Shown one piece after another: positions 1,090 through 9,563 of a stretch of 32,000 bases of DNA. Under the pieces are notes generated by a model that was not told the DNA's origin, ran no database searches, and worked only from the letters and a program-made list of their open reading frames with translations. The stretch is from Promethearchaeota archaeon (GTDB lineage: Archaea; Asgardarchaeota; Lokiarchaeia; Sigyniarchaeales; Promethearchaeaceae), in the NCBI GenBank assembly GCA_016933055.1, contig JAFGBS010000004.1, forward strand, positions 270,001 to 302,000, given 5' to 3'. Position 1 is the stretch's first letter. The number at the start of each line of letters is the position of its first letter. A program made the translations under genes and the position numbers.

Positions 1090-1938
1090 ATGCCATTCGA
1101 TTCTATTTCCCCTGAAATCAAACAAACCATCCTAAATGCAAAGGAAAATGGGATGACTCGAATGCAGATTTGCTTACAGTACGGTTTTGATTGGGAAACC
1201 GTTTTACAATGTTTGAATGAGATCTCTGACCATATTATTGAAAGAAATATGTATCATCAAGGTTTTCAATATTCCTTTCGGTGGTTAAAACATCGTCATC
1301 TTTCCTTTCAACAGCATCGTGATTCCCAATTACTTCATCAATATTTATTAAAGATCACTCAAGACCGGTATCCTAAAGACATTTTTAACAATAAGGACAT
1401 CCAACGAATCTCCCAATTCCGATTGAACCGTCTCAAGAGGGGGAAGGTTTCAGAAATTGGTAAAATTCTCCGAAATGAGGGATCAATCCAAGAAACTCTG
1501 AGCATACATGATTTAACTAAAATTGCTAAACATACTTTTGCTGAATATGTAACTGCACAAAAACAAAGACCCTCTCATAATGATATTCAATTCCGTATTT
1601 TAGAGAAAGATCCTCATACAATCGCTATGGAAGTCCCTGTCTGGGGTAGACCCCCTATCAGCTCCGACATTATTACTGGTCATATTGACCTTATTCGAAT
1701 CATTGAGGATACTATCCAAATTGTAGACTATAAACCTGAGGATTCTTTTATGCCTTCTATACCCCAAGTAGCCTTCTATGGAATCTTACTTCAAAAAAAA
1801 CTGAATTTAAGTGAAGTTCGTTGTGCGTCCTTCAGTAAAAAAAAAATCTGGGAGTATAAACCTGATATCTTGTACAGGATAAACGAGCTTCTTCTTGAGC
1901 ATAATATTAGATTTTTTTCATGGCAAAGGTTCTTATAA
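1090..1938 (+). CDS. PD-(D/E)XK nuclease family protein with an N-terminal HTH-like segment
   Basis: Motifs IAMEVPVW, TGHIDLIRI, IQIVDYKP and PQVAFYG (RecB/Cas4-like E..D..DxK and QxxxY). Confidence 0.8.
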   Translation: MPFDSISPEIKQTILNAKENGMTRMQICLQYGFDWETVLQCLNEISDHIIERNMYHQGFQYSFRWLKHRHLSFQQHRDSQLLHQYLLKITQDRYPKDIFNNKDIQRISQFRLNRLKRGKVSEIGKILRNEGSIQETLSIHDLTKIAKHTFAEYVTAQKQRPSHNDIQFRILEKDPHTIAMEVPVWGRPPISSDIITGHIDLIRIIEDTIQIVDYKPEDSFMPSIPQVAFYGILLQKKLNLSEVRCASFSKKKIWEYKPDILYRINELLLEHNIRFFSWQRFL

Positions 1939-1952
1939 AAAAAGAAAAAAAA
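1937..1952 (-). terminator. Oligo-T tract, probable archaeal terminator of the oxidoreductase operon
   Basis: The minus strand reads TTTTTTTTCTTTTTT immediately after the beta-subunit stop, between convergent genes. Confidence 0.45.
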
Positions 1953-3044
1953 TTATTCACAATACGTATCCGAGCAATATCGGTTCTGTAAAGTGAATGA
2001 AGAAGATCTCACCATAGCAGATTTCAGAAATTGATAGCCTATGTCATAAGTGGAACCATCCCCCGCAAGGTGTATTACATACGGTACTTCTTTTTTCCAT
2101 AAGTTTTTATATCGCAACATTCGATACGTTGTGGCGATCGCATCCGCTACGGTAGCCCCACTTTCGAACAAATGATGCATCCATGATACTTTCCAAGAGG
2201 TTAAATCGTCTTTACTAGTCGCCACTTCCAAACAACTGGTGTTATTAACATAAATAATATTATTACCTGCCACTTGTGTTGCCCCAAGAGCTAATTGATG
2301 CATAATTGAACCCGCGCCACAACCTGGACATAATCCGTATCCCGGAGCGAGGTGAGTTTGAGGCTTTAATTTCTTTACGTTAATTTTATACACATCGAAT
2401 GGAGATTCAGCACCCATATTATCCACTAGCCGTTTCATATTTTCTAGCCGGGCTTCGGTCTGTTCAATTAGTTCGTTAATTAAATCCTCTTCAAATTTTG
2501 GTTTAAATAGATGCCTATATTTACCCATGGATTCTATAAATTCCATGAATTTTTCCCGACTGAATTTCATGGGTCGAGAATAACTCCATTTTGGAATCCC
2601 GTTTTTTACACGGATCGTGATTAAAGGCCAATATCCGGAATCGGTTGCCAATTTAGCAATACGATTGGAGTCATGGGCATCTGATCGCCATCCACGAGGA
2701 CAAGGAGAAAAAGCTTGGATAAATGCACCACCAGGAGTTTTCATGGCTTCTATTACTTTACCGATGAAATCATTGGGGTATGCCAAACTAGCAGTTGCCA
2801 GAAATGAAGATTTAGTGCCTAAAAAGGCCATGGGATTCAGAATATCTTGTTTGACACCTACTTTACCTTTGATTTCCTCTCCCCCCGGTCCTGTAGTTGT
2901 GGAACATGCGAAGGGGGTGGAACCACTTTCTTGAATTCCTGTATTCATGAACGCTTCATTGTCATAATTGAAAAACAGGACAGTGTGCCGTTCTTCGCGT
3001 TGTAATAGATCATTTACATCGATTATGTTGGATTTTACAGCCAT
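1953..3044 (-). CDS. porB: Pyruvate/2-oxoacid:ferredoxin oxidoreductase beta subunit, circularly permuted
   Basis: YDNEAFMNTGIQES at aa 27-40 and SPCPRGW at aa 113-119 precede LAPGYGLCPGCG (aa 232-243), NTSCLE (C271) and GDGSTYDIG (aa 328-336). The canonical order is the reverse. Confidence 0.9.
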   Translation of the reverse strand: MAVKSNIIDVNDLLQREERHTVLFFNYDNEAFMNTGIQESGSTPFACSTTTGPGGEEIKGKVGVKQDILNPMAFLGTKSSFLATASLAYPNDFIGKVIEAMKTPGGAFIQAFSPCPRGWRSDAHDSNRIAKLATDSGYWPLITIRVKNGIPKWSYSRPMKFSREKFMEFIESMGKYRHLFKPKFEEDLINELIEQTEARLENMKRLVDNMGAESPFDVYKINVKKLKPQTHLAPGYGLCPGCGAGSIMHQLALGATQVAGNNIIYVNNTSCLEVATSKDDLTSWKVSWMHHLFESGATVADAIATTYRMLRYKNLWKKEVPYVIHLAGDGSTYDIGYQFLKSAMVRSSSFTLQNRYCSDTYCE

Positions 3045-4262
3045 CTAGATCTCCTCCAATTTATCCTTGGTTTCTCGAACTCCAAGGTAATAATACAAAC
3101 GTCCCTTCATGTCATTTACCGTTTCCATCTTTTTAGCCGCAAGACTAAACTCATCTTTAGTAACATCTCTTCCCCCTAATCCCACAATGAAACTGCGTAA
3201 AATAGTTCCTAAGGGATATGTTGCTGTGGCAATCGCAGAACCAACTGGAGGGAGTATGTCACTCAAGGAATCATCTTTTTCTAACACGATAAGCTTTTCA
3301 ATGTTATTTTCTTCAATCATATCTTGTAGCTGTTTATAGGGGAACGGTCTCCAAGTTCGAATCTTGATCAAAGGATAGTCCTTATTCTTTTCCATCCAGC
3401 TAATAATATTCCCACACATAGATCCCATGGTAATAAATGCAGTTTTTGAACGTGCATCTAAATTAAAGCCTTCTATATGATCGTAATGTCTTCCTGATAG
3501 TTTTCCAAAATCCTTGTATGTTTTTCCAATAATATCGATTACTCCTTCCTTGGCCTTATCTAATCCTCTTCGTCCCTCCATGAAATATGAAGGGGTGACG
3601 ATACCGCCCCAAGTTCCTGGGTCATCGGGATTTATGGTTTTTCTTTTCTTTTTCGGAGTGAATTTCATTACTTCTTTATGCGTTAACGCTTCAAAGTTCT
3701 GGGCTGAATGAGAGATGATAAATCCATCATGAACAAACATTGTAGGGAATAAAGAGTTTTCGGCGATCTTGGAAGCCATAATTGCTGCATCATAAGTTTC
3801 TTGAACGTTTTCTGAAACGAGTGTGTTCCATCCAAAATCCATTAAAGTGAATTCCCACGAATTCCAGATACTCAGATTAGGTGCATTAAAAGCTCGTGCA
3901 GATATCATCATGGTTAACGGCAATCGCCAACCTACTGGCATAGGAAGTGCTTCACACATCAATAAGTAGCCCTGGCTTGCTGTAGCCGTAAATGTTCGTG
4001 CACCTGCAGCACATGCTGCTGTGCTATATGACATTGCTGCAAGTTCGGATTCCACATTCACGAATGCAGCTTTTAAAAATCCATGGTTGACCACATCACT
4101 TAATCCTTCCACAGATTGAGTTTGAGGGGTTATAGGAAATGCACAAATCACATCTGGGTCGGTTTGAGAAACTGCCCCGGCGACTGCATAATTTCCCGTC
4201 ATTGCTAATTGTTTTCGTTCAGTTATTTCTTGGAAGAATGGGCTCATAGGTTCTACTGACAT
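3045..4262 (-). CDS. porA: Pyruvate/2-oxoacid:ferredoxin oxidoreductase alpha subunit
   Basis: MTGNYAVA, AFPITPQT, VESELAAM, GARTFTATASQG and FVHDGFIISH motifs. Abuts the neighbouring genes with zero spacing. Confidence 0.92.
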   Translation of the reverse strand: MSVEPMSPFFQEITERKQLAMTGNYAVAGAVSQTDPDVICAFPITPQTQSVEGLSDVVNHGFLKAAFVNVESELAAMSYSTAACAAGARTFTATASQGYLLMCEALPMPVGWRLPLTMMISARAFNAPNLSIWNSWEFTLMDFGWNTLVSENVQETYDAAIMASKIAENSLFPTMFVHDGFIISHSAQNFEALTHKEVMKFTPKKKRKTINPDDPGTWGGIVTPSYFMEGRRGLDKAKEGVIDIIGKTYKDFGKLSGRHYDHIEGFNLDARSKTAFITMGSMCGNIISWMEKNKDYPLIKIRTWRPFPYKQLQDMIEENNIEKLIVLEKDDSLSDILPPVGSAIATATYPLGTILRSFIVGLGGRDVTKDEFSLAAKKMETVNDMKGRLYYYLGVRETKDKLEEI

Positions 4263-5195
4263 TTATTTTTTACCTCCCACAGGTTCTTTTTTCATCTTTT
4301 CTGTTAGAGCATTTTTGGGACAAATCAAAACGCAATTCATGCATCCTTTGCAGTGATACTCATCAACTCCGGCCACATGGTAGTCTCCATCCTCTCCCAA
4401 TTCCCTCAAAATTGCAAGATCGGGGCAGACAAGGAAGCATCGGTGACAATTAATGCATAAATCTTTATTCCATTGGGCTACAGAAACTCCCCATGAACCA
4501 GTTTTCACCTTTTCCGAACCTCCGAGCGTGTACCATACACCTGCAAGATCCCGTTCTTTATAGCCAGGTTTTCCTAAGTCTATTTGACTCCACGGTTCCT
4601 TGGTGTCTGCTTCGTAGTTCATCTTAAAGCCCAAATCGAGCATCTCGGTTCGTTCATACGCCATTTCCACTACTTTTGCATTTTTCTCTGCAATACTTGC
4701 CTTAAACGTCTTGAAGATTGCATCTTTCAATTGTTCTAACGTAAATATATCGGATACTTTTACCAATGCCCCTAATATCACGGTATTAGTAATATTTCTC
4801 CCTAAAACTTCTAGAGCAAGATTAGTAGCATCAAGTTTAGCAAAGTTGATATCATCTCTATGAATTTTTTCTCGAATTTCATCGAATGACATGGTGGTAT
4901 TCACAATCAACCAACCACCAGGTGTAATTCCTTCTGTAACATCAATGTCATCGAGAAGAGTATCATCCAATACTCCTACATAATTAGGAGCATACACTTG
5001 GGTATTTGTTCTAATTAGAGTAGGATTTTTACCTAAACGCGCGTAGGATTCGGTAGGAGATCCCATTCTTTCTGCGCCGAACCGGGGTTGGTTAACTCCA
5101 AAGCCGGGAAAAGAATCCACGCATAATTGTGACGCAGTAACTCCTCCTTGACCACCCCGTGCATGAAACCTAATATTAATTGCGTAGTCTGACAG
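4263..5195 (-). CDS. porC: 2-oxoacid:ferredoxin oxidoreductase gamma subunit fused to the delta (2x[4Fe-4S] ferredoxin) subunit
   Basis: The frame extends upstream of the tracked GTG (5120) to CTG at 5195, giving SDYAINIRFHARGGQGGVTASQL, the conserved gamma N-terminus. Also FGAERMGSP and TNTVILGA. The C-terminus carries CINCHRCFLVCP and CKGCMNCVLICP. Confidence 0.88.
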   Translation of the reverse strand: MSDYAINIRFHARGGQGGVTASQLCVDSFPGFGVNQPRFGAERMGSPTESYARLGKNPTLIRTNTQVYAPNYVGVLDDTLLDDIDVTEGITPGGWLIVNTTMSFDEIREKIHRDDINFAKLDATNLALEVLGRNITNTVILGALVKVSDIFTLEQLKDAIFKTFKASIAEKNAKVVEMAYERTEMLDLGFKMNYEADTKEPWSQIDLGKPGYKERDLAGVWYTLGGSEKVKTGSWGVSVAQWNKDLCINCHRCFLVCPDLAILRELGEDGDYHVAGVDEYHCKGCMNCVLICPKNALTEKMKKEPVGGKK

Positions 5196-5388
5196 TTTTT
5201 ATTCATCCTTCAACAGTTAATTCATCCGTAAAGAAATTAGATGAGTATGTTGAGTAACACTAAGATGCGCCATCATTAAAAATTTTTGTTCAAAAAGCGT
5301 TTTACCATCAATTATCAGCGAAATGTCCAATTGAATGATCCAATATATTTAAAATTCAAGGACAATAAACCGTAACTAATCCGAATTC

Positions 5389-6985: not shown

Positions 6986-7495
6986 ATGACCGAAAACACT
7001 GATGGAATTGAGGAAATCCAAAAACAAATCCTGAAAATTACTAAGAATGCAAAAAAATTACAGACTAATTACAAAAATCTTGCAAATTCTTTAAAAGAAA
7101 TGTCGAAAAATGTAAATTTTCTTCTGAAAACCGTTCAGCAGAATACAGAATCCATCGAAAAACTCATCACAGAACAACAGAATACTGTTGGTAATGAGAA
7201 AAAACTACTGCAGCACGATAAAACCCAAGGTGAGCGAACCATCATCGATCGAGAAAATTTTGTTCCTGCTCTGTATACAGTTCTAGCAGAATTTAAAAAT
7301 GGAATTAAGGACTTTATAGAAATTAAAACCGTAAAACATCTCTTTTTTAAGGAATATACCCTCAATGATGAGACTGAGTTTGATGAGTGGCTTTTAGCGG
7401 CCTATTGGTCCAACGAAATAGAATTAATATCGGGTATCGGTGATTACGCAATTCGGGATATTTATGACAATGTTTATCACTACATTAAATTCTAA
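6986..7495 (+). CDS. Hypothetical protein: N-terminal coiled coil plus a small C-terminal globular domain
   Basis: Heptad-like N-terminal ~75 aa. The 3' end overlaps the start of the methyltransferase. Confidence 0.7.
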   Translation: MTENTDGIEEIQKQILKITKNAKKLQTNYKNLANSLKEMSKNVNFLLKTVQQNTESIEKLITEQQNTVGNEKKLLQHDKTQGERTIIDRENFVPALYTVLAEFKNGIKDFIEIKTVKHLFFKEYTLNDETEFDEWLLAAYWSNEIELISGIGDYAIRDIYDNVYHYIKF

Positions 7496-9563
7496 TATAA
7501 CATTGAAAGATTTCATTGAGTTTTATGAGTCTTTTCCAGACTTTAATGCCTTTTTGAAAGCAGTTTCAAGATATTATTCAGAAAATTTCAAATTTCTATC
7601 CAACAAACAAATATTGGATACACATGTTCTTCAAAATATAATAACTTCTTTTAATCAATACTTTGAAGCGTTATCATTGTATGACAATATTGAGGATAAC
7701 AGAAAAAGTGGGAGTTATTTTACCCCAAAATCTGTTTGTCGGTTCATAAATCAACGTGCTTGGAAACAGTATTCCCAAAATTCCAATATTTTAGACAGAA
7801 TTCCTCAAATTCTAGATCCCAGTTCTGGATTAGGATTTTTTCTTATTGATATGTTCTTTATGACTCTAAAAGAATTTTCAGAACGCGGAATTATTTCAGA
7901 ACTATCATTGATTGACCTTATAAACGGTATTCATGGATGTGATATAAATCAAACATCGGTTGAATTAAGTAAGAATCTTTTCTTATCCATTATGGGAATC
8001 CTTTTACTCAATGAATTTTTTTCTGGAGATTGGTCGACAATCAAGCAAAGAATTAATGCAAATTTTATCTCGGAAGATTTCTTGAAAACCAGTCTTTCTT
8101 TTAAGCCAGACATTATAGTTGGAAATCCTCCTTACGTACGAGTGCACAAGTTGCAGAAATCCGTAAATACTTACTTAAGAAATCATTTTTTTTCAGCTAT
8201 ATTTGATTTTGACCTTTATGTGTGTTTTTTTGAAAAAGCCATTCAGATATTAACTAAAGGCGGCATTCTGGCTTTCATCACACCCGAAAAGTATTTGATG
8301 CGCAAATACGCTCGCAATATAAGAACTATAATGTTACTTAATTCCGTTTTGCTTGAATTGATTGACATTTCTCGATGTAATGAAGTATTTCCTGTAGATA
8401 CGTATCCGATTATCTCTGTGTTGATGAAGACAACAGATGGATTAATCCCAACCATAACAGATTGGCATACACACCAAAAGCAGACTATTCAAAAATTCCC
8501 GACATTCAAAATGGTAATTATCCGATCTCCTCAATTTTCCACAGATTATCAACAGAAAATCCATAAGATTTTGGATGGAAAAAAGCTGATCGGAACAGAT
8601 ATTGCTTCTCGAACATTTGAGATTAAAGATTTCTTGAAGTTTCAAGAAGATCCTGAAAAAAAGTTTTTGTTCTATATGGACCAAAAAATGCAACAATTGG
8701 AAGAAATTTTCCACAATTATAGTACAATAGGTGATACGAATACAAGTATTTTTTGTGGAACTCCTCGATCAAAATACTATCATGAAATAAAACATAATCT
8801 GACATGCAATCAGAATCCCTCAACAAATTGTATTCGATTTATTGTCTCCAAAAACATTGCACCTTATTGCATCTTTTGGGAATCACCCATCACCTTCGAT
8901 CATGAGACTTATACAAAACCATGTTATCTTATTGAAAAGGGTGTATTTTCATCCACAAAATTATCGAATTTTAAATTCACCCCCAAAATATTGATGAAAG
9001 CTAATTCTCGTTATATTACAGCGGCAGTGGACAATGTAGGCTATATTTTTATAGGTGTCTATGGAATATTATGGAAATTAGACTCAGTAATACATTTGGA
9101 TATATTGAACGCGATTTTCAATTCAAACCTCATCAATTATTATCTCCTCCACAAATACAAATCATATATGTTGAATTCCCGTTATCTCTCTATTAACAGT
9201 ACCATAATCAATGATATTCCCCTTCCGGGTGTTTTTCATGGGAATCGATTTCATCCAGCCATTTCCAATTCCAAATTCCATGAAATTTGTGTAAAACTTA
9301 CTCAATCGATATCAGAACTCCGGCATAGTATCCAGTCGATGTGTGATTCTGGAGACGAAAATCTTGTTGAATCCCTTAAGAGAATTCTCCATCAATCCCA
9401 AAGTGAACCTTATGTTAATAATAATGATAAAAATAGTAAAATTATGAACCATATACAAAAGATAAACAAATTTATATATGATTTATATGCAATTCCTAGA
9501 AAGTTCCAATCTCAATTAGAGGGGGAAAATATGATAATACATGATGGTATGGAAAATTGTTGA
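7464..9563 (+). CDS. N6-adenine DNA methyltransferase (gamma class, TaqI/Eco57I-like) with a C-terminal target-recognition region
   Basis: GSYFTP, ILDPSSGLGFFL (motif I), IHGCDIN, IVGNPPYVR (motif IV), DLYVCFFEKA and LAFITP. Start placed at ATG 7464 (or 7470), not the tracked 7440. Confidence 0.88.
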   Translation: MTMFITTLNSNITLKDFIEFYESFPDFNAFLKAVSRYYSENFKFLSNKQILDTHVLQNIITSFNQYFEALSLYDNIEDNRKSGSYFTPKSVCRFINQRAWKQYSQNSNILDRIPQILDPSSGLGFFLIDMFFMTLKEFSERGIISELSLIDLINGIHGCDINQTSVELSKNLFLSIMGILLLNEFFSGDWSTIKQRINANFISEDFLKTSLSFKPDIIVGNPPYVRVHKLQKSVNTYLRNHFFSAIFDFDLYVCFFEKAIQILTKGGILAFITPEKYLMRKYARNIRTIMLLNSVLLELIDISRCNEVFPVDTYPIISVLMKTTDGLIPTITDWHTHQKQTIQKFPTFKMVIIRSPQFSTDYQQKIHKILDGKKLIGTDIASRTFEIKDFLKFQEDPEKKFLFYMDQKMQQLEEIFHNYSTIGDTNTSIFCGTPRSKYYHEIKHNLTCNQNPSTNCIRFIVSKNIAPYCIFWESPITFDHETYTKPCYLIEKGVFSSTKLSNFKFTPKILMKANSRYITAAVDNVGYIFIGVYGILWKLDSVIHLDILNAIFNSNLINYYLLHKYKSYMLNSRYLSINSTIINDIPLPGVFHGNRFHPAISNSKFHEICVKLTQSISELRHSIQSMCDSGDENLVESLKRILHQSQSEPYVNNNDKNSKIMNHIQKINKFIYDLYAIPRKFQSQLEGENMIIHDGMENC

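Follow-up and report, generated by a model that had tools for sequence, protein, structure and literature searches.

Thiamine diphosphate (ThDP) enzymes are recognized by the signature GDG-X(~25)-N, whose two halves form the ThDP/Mg motif of the beta subunits of 2-oxoacid:ferredoxin oxidoreductases (OFORs). Described systems closest to the gene reported here are PorB of M. acetivorans, a subunit of a four-subunit enzyme (9bt4 chain C; NF008819), the oxalate oxidoreductase (OOR) of Moorella thermoacetica, which consists of alpha, beta, and a fused gamma-delta chain called delta (5c4i), and the fused bacterial pyruvate:ferredoxin oxidoreductases (PFORs; D. africanus 1b0p and M. thermoacetica 6cin), in which the corresponding region is domain VI of a single chain of 1,170-1,230 residues. 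Here we analyzed a 32,000-nucleotide stretch of a Promethearchaeota archaeon (GCA_016933055.1, contig JAFGBS010000004.1, positions 270,001 to 302,000), hereafter referred to as the window. Its minus-strand open reading frame (ORF) at 1953..3044 encodes 363 amino acids followed by a TAA stop codon, and the product is an OFOR beta subunit in which the two halves of the chain stand in swapped order. Sequence comparisons suggest that it is a functional, circularly permuted, ThDP- and [4Fe-4S]-binding beta subunit of a three-gene enzyme, a reading to which we assign a probability of about 0.85.

A permutation with the GDG...N motif split in two had been proposed in a first-pass annotation made from the sequence alone, and phmmer, NCBIfam, a profile search of the genome, and BLASTP all returned swapped halves. 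In the phmmer search against solved structures, query residues 225-350 aligned with residues 3-119 of M. acetivorans PorB (9bt4_C) and residues 17-189 with residues 114-279, and the OOR beta subunit (5c4i_C) gave the same two-part swapped result. The NCBIfam PorB model matched the protein in two stretches of swapped order, scoring 211.9 bits against a cut-off of 405. The genome profile search placed positions 116-294 of the PorB model upstream of positions 5-120 within one open frame. BLASTP against the canonical PorB of the same genome paired residues 8-202 with 111-294 and residues 235-350 with 21-126. As the first-pass annotation had predicted, each half matched the opposite half of PorB. 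The cut separates the helix that comes after GDG..DIG from the strand that terminates in YDN, and it interrupts the ThDP/Mg motif within its ~25-residue spacer. Both halves of the motif are present with their order along the chain reversed, and four cysteines (C239, C242, C271, and C115) align with cysteines of PorB and OOR.

All features of the beta gene lie on the minus strand, and each motif was found in the ORF translation at the residue given in the first-pass annotation. The chain opens with a new N-terminal segment (residues 1-16, 2997..3044), which is partly alignable to the canonical helix after GDG (BLASTP, 8-23 with 111-126) and may be a duplication remnant. Residues 17-205 (2430..2996) correspond by hidden Markov model (HMM) and BLAST alignment to the C-terminal half of canonical PorB (~114-294). 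This half contains YDNEAFMNTGIQ (residues 27-38, 2931..2966), recognized from sequence and conservation as the ThDP/Mg motif's second half, which carries the Asn ligand together with the substrate/ThDP loop. It also contains Cys115 in SPCPRGW (2700..2702), the putative fourth ligand of the proximal [4Fe-4S] cluster, which is aligned with the cysteine in PCP.GW of both PorB and OOR beta, and GKYRHLF at residues 174-180. A connector between the two HMM/BLAST matches (residues 206-224, 2373..2429) joins the former C-terminus to the former N-terminus. Residues 225-346 (2007..2372) align in the same way with the N-terminal half of canonical PorB (~3-126). The predicted Fe-S ligands Cys239 and Cys242 form CPGC (2319..2330) within LAPGYGLCPGCG, and Cys271 in NTSCLE (2232..2234), invariant in the family, is a further predicted ligand. 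GDG (residues 328-330, 2055..2063), again assigned from sequence and conservation as the first half of the ThDP/Mg motif, begins GDGSTYDIGYQFLKSAMVR (residues 328-346). Past the break point, the chain ends in a 17-residue tail (residues 347-363, 1956..2006) with the consensus TSSFxxMNxYL. The extreme C-terminus of the window protein (residues 357-363, 1956-1976) reads YCSDTYCE and carries a CxxxxC pair; among eight members read, this pair was common only to the close relative P0003, and the other tails ended without cysteines.

No Pfam domain scored above threshold in the permuted beta subunit. TPP_enzyme_C (PF02775) reached 16 bits against a gathering threshold of 21.9 over only residues 18-110 and profile positions 71-150; the permutation cuts the domain model in two. 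No co-linear full-length match above the cut-off of a curated OFOR beta model (NF008819, NF008818) was obtained, and no curated model covering the permuted topology was found. Proteins of the family are named "hypothetical" in NCBI records, whereas JGI records name them OFOR beta subunits. A permuted OFOR subunit was not mentioned in the literature searched, which excluded subscription journals, nor in a PFOR-diversity review of November 2026 (PMC13768988). The first-pass annotation had stated that a known family with this order as its norm would speak against it. The swapped order is indeed the norm in the protein's own family, but no curated or published family describes it.

The beta gene is the last of three head-to-tail minus-strand genes with zero spacing, encoding a gamma-delta fusion, alpha, and beta. 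As noted in the first-pass annotation for the porA junction, the alpha stop codon TAG directly abuts the ATG of beta; the gamma-delta/alpha junction is likewise zero-spaced. The alpha gene (3045..4262, minus strand) encodes 405 amino acids with POR_N and PFOR_II domains (Pfam, NCBIfam) and stands beside beta in every related locus with upstream DNA. The gamma-delta fusion gene occupies the stop-to-stop frame 4263..5198 (minus strand), of which the listed ORF starts at GTG 5120 (4263..5120, 285 amino acids), and carries the Pfam POR domain and two Fer4 motifs. A T-run directly after the beta stop codon (1937..1952, minus strand) is probably an archaeal terminator. The conserved gamma motif IRFHARGGQGG is encoded in this open frame within 5121-5198 (minus strand), ahead of its first ATG/GTG/TTG codon (GTG 5120). 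The frame is open to 5198, and the sole upstream start options are CTG (5195-5193) and ATT (5180-5178 and 5174-5172). The closest relative, L007, shows the same situation, and other relatives begin further upstream with ATG (MLTPE...). Either a non-standard start codon is used for gamma-delta or the gene has been called too short. In alpha, the N-terminal peptide MSxEPMxxFFxEIxE (residues 1-15, 4218-4262, minus strand) was invariant in 27 family members, and the alignment of M. acetivorans PorA to alpha begins only at residue 15.

A word-indexed protein search returned 308 relatives of the permuted beta subunit. The best 120 clusters, drawn from many studies, were 336-388 amino acids long, had 55-87% identity, and aligned co-linearly with 91-100% of the query, and all but one of them (119/120) showed the swapped order in BLAST against the genome's canonical PorB. 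A scan of species-representative genomes identified 153 carriers, nearly all labelled as Asgard lineages. In a genome search of the phylum, 130 of 400 genomes carried the gene, with 128/160 in the class of the window and 1/239 elsewhere, and several carriers were single-contig genomes. The first-pass annotation had recommended a search for the same order in Asgard and other archaeal genomes; the swapped order is not peculiar to one genome, and 128 of 160 genomes of the class carry the same co-linear protein of ~361 amino acids. Proteins diverged to as little as 50% identity retained the order. The gene order gamma-delta, alpha, beta was constant in all related loci with upstream DNA. One contig filed under a 'Nanopelagicaceae bacterium' metagenome-assembled genome (L037, DATKTW010000155.1), where it was probably mis-binned, contained the Asgard-type operon of gamma-delta, alpha, and permuted beta at 63-71% identity.

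Next, we examined the conservation of the family. In an alignment of 67 members, C115, C239, C242, C271, and GDG 328-330 were invariant, and so were Y27, D28, N29, E30, A31, N34, T35, G36, and Q38; the four Fe-S cysteines and both motif halves, described as intact in the first-pass annotation, are therefore constant in these members. Across 78 species, the majority residue share was 77% in the N-terminal segment, 81% in the connector (a figure for the wider stretch of residues 190-224), 71% in the C-terminal tail, and 88% in the two core halves. By these shares, the chain ends and connector are nearly as conserved as the core. The gene is under purifying selection: dN was 0.089 against the closest relative (L007), and only dN is given, without a dN/dS ratio, because synonymous sites were saturated even in this comparison. 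The partner alpha showed 85% mean column identity.

Some relatives carried interruptions of the permuted gene. In four related genomes (L088:185-250, L089:185-250, L090:185-250, and L091:64-130), a 30-31-base hairpin insert was found in the permuted porB, inside the Ile37 codon of NTG/IQ. The inserts produced an in-frame TGA in three genomes and a frame shift in one, the stem co-varied, and removal restored NTGIQE. From its fold, the insert looks like a bulge-helix-bulge mini-intron. In another relative (L092, G123:C221), an in-frame TAG was present in the C-terminal tail (VRAG*WGIQN) where others carry Thr, which could be a shorter tail, an error, or read-through.

AlphaFold2 modelled the beta chain with a pLDDT of 80.9 and a pTM of 0.88, and the model was weak only around the NTGIQ loop, a region that the cofactor and alpha keep ordered in real enzymes. 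The N-terminal segment was predicted as a strand (6-9) and a helix (10-14) with pLDDT 83-94, the connector region as a helix (186-210) and a strand (211-220) with pLDDT >90, and in the C-terminal tail the helix ran on to residue 354. In Foldseek, each half matched the corresponding half of PFOR domain VI, PorB, or OOR beta. By VIA, residues ~8-210 gave Z 10.6-12.1 over ~180 residues against PFOR domain VI, OOR beta, and PorB, and residues ~225-363 gave Z 4.3-4.9 against OGOR and Sulfolobus OFOR beta. Both programs covered one half at a time because they align sequentially, as expected for a permutation. Such matches would be in line with a retained PP-domain fold.

Prediction of the alpha-beta complex gave an ipSAE of 0.79, compared with 0.00 for the best of three controls; three runs shared at least 95% of contacts, and partner pLDDT was at least 85. 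For this type of prediction, 58 of 80 solved complexes reached the pass mark, as did 2 of 110 mismatched pairs. Passing it shows likeness and is no proof of binding, because canonical OFOR complexes have already been solved. The predicted interface comprises beta 261-346, including the C-terminal helix, and alpha 37-108 and 210-226, and beta is predicted to pair with alpha as in the canonical enzymes. In the beta-alpha-beta topology, the chain moves away from the cofactor side in the helix and comes back to it in the following strand, and the loop between helix and strand is at the far edge of the sheet. On the basis of this general topology, the new chain ends are placed far from the cofactor and probably do not meet at the ThDP site.

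For phylogenetic analysis, family members were re-ordered by script and aligned with 99 canonical beta sequences or domains. The permuted proteins formed one clade (SH-aLRT 100) with a stem of 0.99 substitutions per site. This clade arises from a poorly resolved canonical PorB/VorB set and is not sister to the two canonical copies of the genome. A full HMMER search covered 1.84 billion protein representatives, and among the best 150 of its 1,355 hits we found one full-length permuted cluster, one permuted fragment, 123 canonical proteins, and 25 with a single half. The AlphaFold DB fold clusters gave one full-length match. As part of the whole explanation, and with the same confidence as the rest of it, we consider that a single permutation event took place at or close to the base of the Asgard class of the window and that selection has preserved its product.

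The permuted enzyme is a third paralogue and not the sole enzyme of its kind, because the same genome has two canonical clusters of the pyruvate or 2-oxoisovalerate oxidoreductase (POR/VOR) type. Canonical alpha-beta pairs are located on the same contig at ~3 kb and ~50 kb past the end of the window (L001, G000:C6:303858-307721, and L002, G000:C6:350342-354226). The canonical betas of the genome (310 and 311 amino acids) scored best on the VorB-subfamily model, and one was above the cut-off (418 bits on NF008818).

In the arrangement that we propose, the chain would start at the strand ending in YDN, pass through the former C-terminal half and then a ~20-residue connector, continue into the former N-terminal half with CxxC, the single C, GDG, and the DIG helix, and end past that helix. 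The fold and the cofactor sites would be retained, with the connectivity alone changed, and the cut in the spacer of the GDG-X(~25)-N motif would most likely fall in a cofactor-distal loop. Beta would join alpha as in the canonical enzymes, a small 2-oxoacid, most likely pyruvate, would be oxidized to acyl-CoA and CO2, and the electrons would pass through three [4Fe-4S] clusters to ferredoxin. Several points weigh against this interpretation. None of the NCBIfam scores comes near its equivalog cut-off (beta, 212 against 405; alpha, 286 against 550), and the two canonical POR/VOR-type clusters could cover the oxidation of pyruvate or 2-oxoisovalerate. Moreover, a Logan contig of 62,981 bases, made by a second assembler from the probable source run, spans 1700-5300 with zero differences, but it is not independent support because it comes from the same reads as the assembly.

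The origin of the window in a metagenome-assembled genome of 36 contigs raises the question of an assembly or binning artefact, such as a misjoined contig or a collapsed tandem repeat. The sole run that covered beta is the probable source of the window DNA, and run X2, from another study, covered parts of alpha and gamma-delta and not beta. However, hundreds of independent assemblies, produced in many studies and including single-contig genomes, encode the co-linear protein, the second assembler produced the identical sequence, and the order is kept down to 50% identity; the artefact explanation is effectively refuted. That the gene is a decayed or non-catalytic paralogue without ThDP and Fe-S binding, with the two canonical clusters doing the work, would be in line with the presence of those clusters and with the sub-threshold TPP_enzyme_C match. 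Nevertheless, all cofactor ligands are invariant across the family, dN is low beside saturated synonymous sites, alpha shows still stronger conservation, every locus has the three-gene operon intact, and the family has persisted across the whole class, so that decay appears very improbable. The first-pass annotation had likewise argued against a pseudogene, and the invariant ligands, low dN, and intact operon bear this out. A search for RNA datasets carrying the operon, or the beta gene by itself, returned none; three metatranscriptome runs of the source study contained next to no sequence words of the operon, and two of them yielded nothing on closer examination. These results have no bearing on expression either way.

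With regard to the substrate, the best NCBIfam models of the three genes were PorA, PorB, and PorC, all at about half of the cut-offs, and the substrate is not established because every NCBIfam score is below its equivalog cut-off. In the alignment of alpha with D. africanus PFOR, R123, L130, and I132 take the positions of Arg114, Leu121, and Ile123, which contact pyruvate in the PFOR structures, and a four-residue segment of the alpha pocket is absent from the two canonical alphas of the genome. Because of this pocket alignment, the lack of the segment in the canonical alphas, and the VorB-type canonical betas, we place the permuted operon closest to PFOR among the three POR/VOR-type enzymes. 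These sequence features favor pyruvate as the substrate with slightly better than even confidence. A functional permutant acting on another 2-oxoacid, such as 2-oxobutyrate, glyoxylate/oxalate, or a branched-chain or aromatic acid from amino-acid breakdown, is a possible though less favored alternative, to which the missed cut-offs, the likeness of the gamma-delta fusion to the delta subunit of OOR, the long stem of the clade, and the frequent enoyl-CoA hydratase, M28 peptidase, and MFS transporter genes beside the operon of relatives all lend some weight. On the other side are the Arg, Leu, and Ile of the D. africanus PFOR pocket together with the loop length of the pyruvate enzymes, and the PorA, PorB, and PorC best models. 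The OOR equivalogs (NF045790-NF045792) were far out of reach (beta 180 against 590, alpha 136 against 500, delta 87 against 230), and the OOR alpha differs just past the conserved Arg. The route by which the permutation arose can also be read in two ways. Both chain ends are alignable to canonical 111-126 in BLAST, with a 16-residue overlap and 5/14 identities at the N-terminal end, which is suggestive of a tandem duplication whose outer ends were then lost. The overlap of the HMM matches at the chain ends is only ~5 profile positions, and some proteins in the databases comprise nothing but the C-terminal half, so that fission of porB into two genes followed by a swap of order and re-fusion could be envisaged instead. 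We regard this second route as rather unlikely, since the alignment of both chain ends to the same canonical segment argues for duplication and a split intermediate was not found. Of the half-only proteins, one was inspected (P0167); its start at base 8 of a contig of 1,255 bases marks it as a contig-end fragment, and it was rejected as a fission intermediate.

Several genes near the operon were also noted. An enoyl-CoA hydratase gene followed the permuted beta in 33 of 52 related loci (for example, L010:7015-7788), and genes for UPF0047, M28 peptidase, and an MFS transporter were recurrent near the operons of relatives. As a clue to a pathway, these neighbors were set aside; all four are absent from the window and indicate no firm pathway. 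Within the window, a 282-residue ORF (1090-1938, plus strand) converges on the beta gene and has a weak PD-(D/E)XK nuclease match. A 707-residue ORF (7440-9563, plus strand) contains, as read from the translation, an NPPY motif typical of N6-adenine DNA methyltransferases.

If the gene is a functional permutant, a natural cut inside the ThDP signature of a core anaerobic enzyme has been kept through the whole history of an archaeal class. It would serve as a natural test of the weight of chain connectivity in cofactor binding by the ThDP fold, and as a ready design for split or permuted OFORs. We also considered that the permutation is not neutral, and that three strongly conserved, family-specific parts, namely beta residues 1-16 with their strand and helix, the tail TSSFxxMNxYL, and the alpha peptide MSxEPMxxFFxEIxE, form a new element, through which the ThDP site would be completed by closure of the ends during assembly or a lineage-specific redox partner would dock. 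This idea is speculative and, in our estimation, unlikely; if true, the main pyruvate-oxidizing enzyme of Lokiarchaeia-type Asgard archaea would gain a regulatory or assembly property unlike any canonical OFOR. Asgard archaea are the prokaryotes most closely related to eukaryotes, and syntrophy models of how eukaryotes arose give a central place to their ferredoxin-linked oxidation of 2-oxoacids. Because the Pfam and NCBIfam matches miss their thresholds and the NCBI label is "hypothetical", HMM-based reconstructions of Asgard metabolism will score this operon as lacking beta. The main weight of the finding thus lies in protein science and in an annotation trap in Asgard metabolism.

In comparison with known systems, ThDP enzymes (transketolase, decarboxylases, OFORs, and a split transketolase, PMC7661550) have their PYR and PP domains in varied orders or on separate chains. 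Such rearrangements show that the scaffold tolerates changed connectivity, but they move or split whole domains, whereas the permuted beta is cut inside the PP domain and the GDG...N motif, an arrangement for which the literature searched yielded no earlier description. The fused bacterial PFORs (1b0p and 6cin) have the same PP-domain fold over the aligned half (VIA Z 11-12) and conserve the alpha-equivalent Arg, Leu, and Ile pocket residues; their domain VI is in canonical order. The OOR of Moorella thermoacetica shares the three-gene architecture and provided the second-best beta match, but its beta is in canonical order, its alpha pocket differs after the conserved Arg, and the present proteins score far below the OOR cut-offs. 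M. acetivorans PorB was the best match in sequence and in Foldseek, with a VIA Z just below those of the fused PFORs and OOR beta. It has in common with the permuted beta the ThDP motif halves, the four Fe-S cysteines, PCP.GW, RHLF, and PorA-like and PorC/PorD-like partner genes, at ~30-34% identity per half and an HMM score of half the cut-off. Unlike this PorB and its partners, the permuted beta has canonical 114-294 first and then 3-126, gamma and delta are fused, and ~20 connector residues, an N-terminal segment, and a conserved C-terminal tail have been added.

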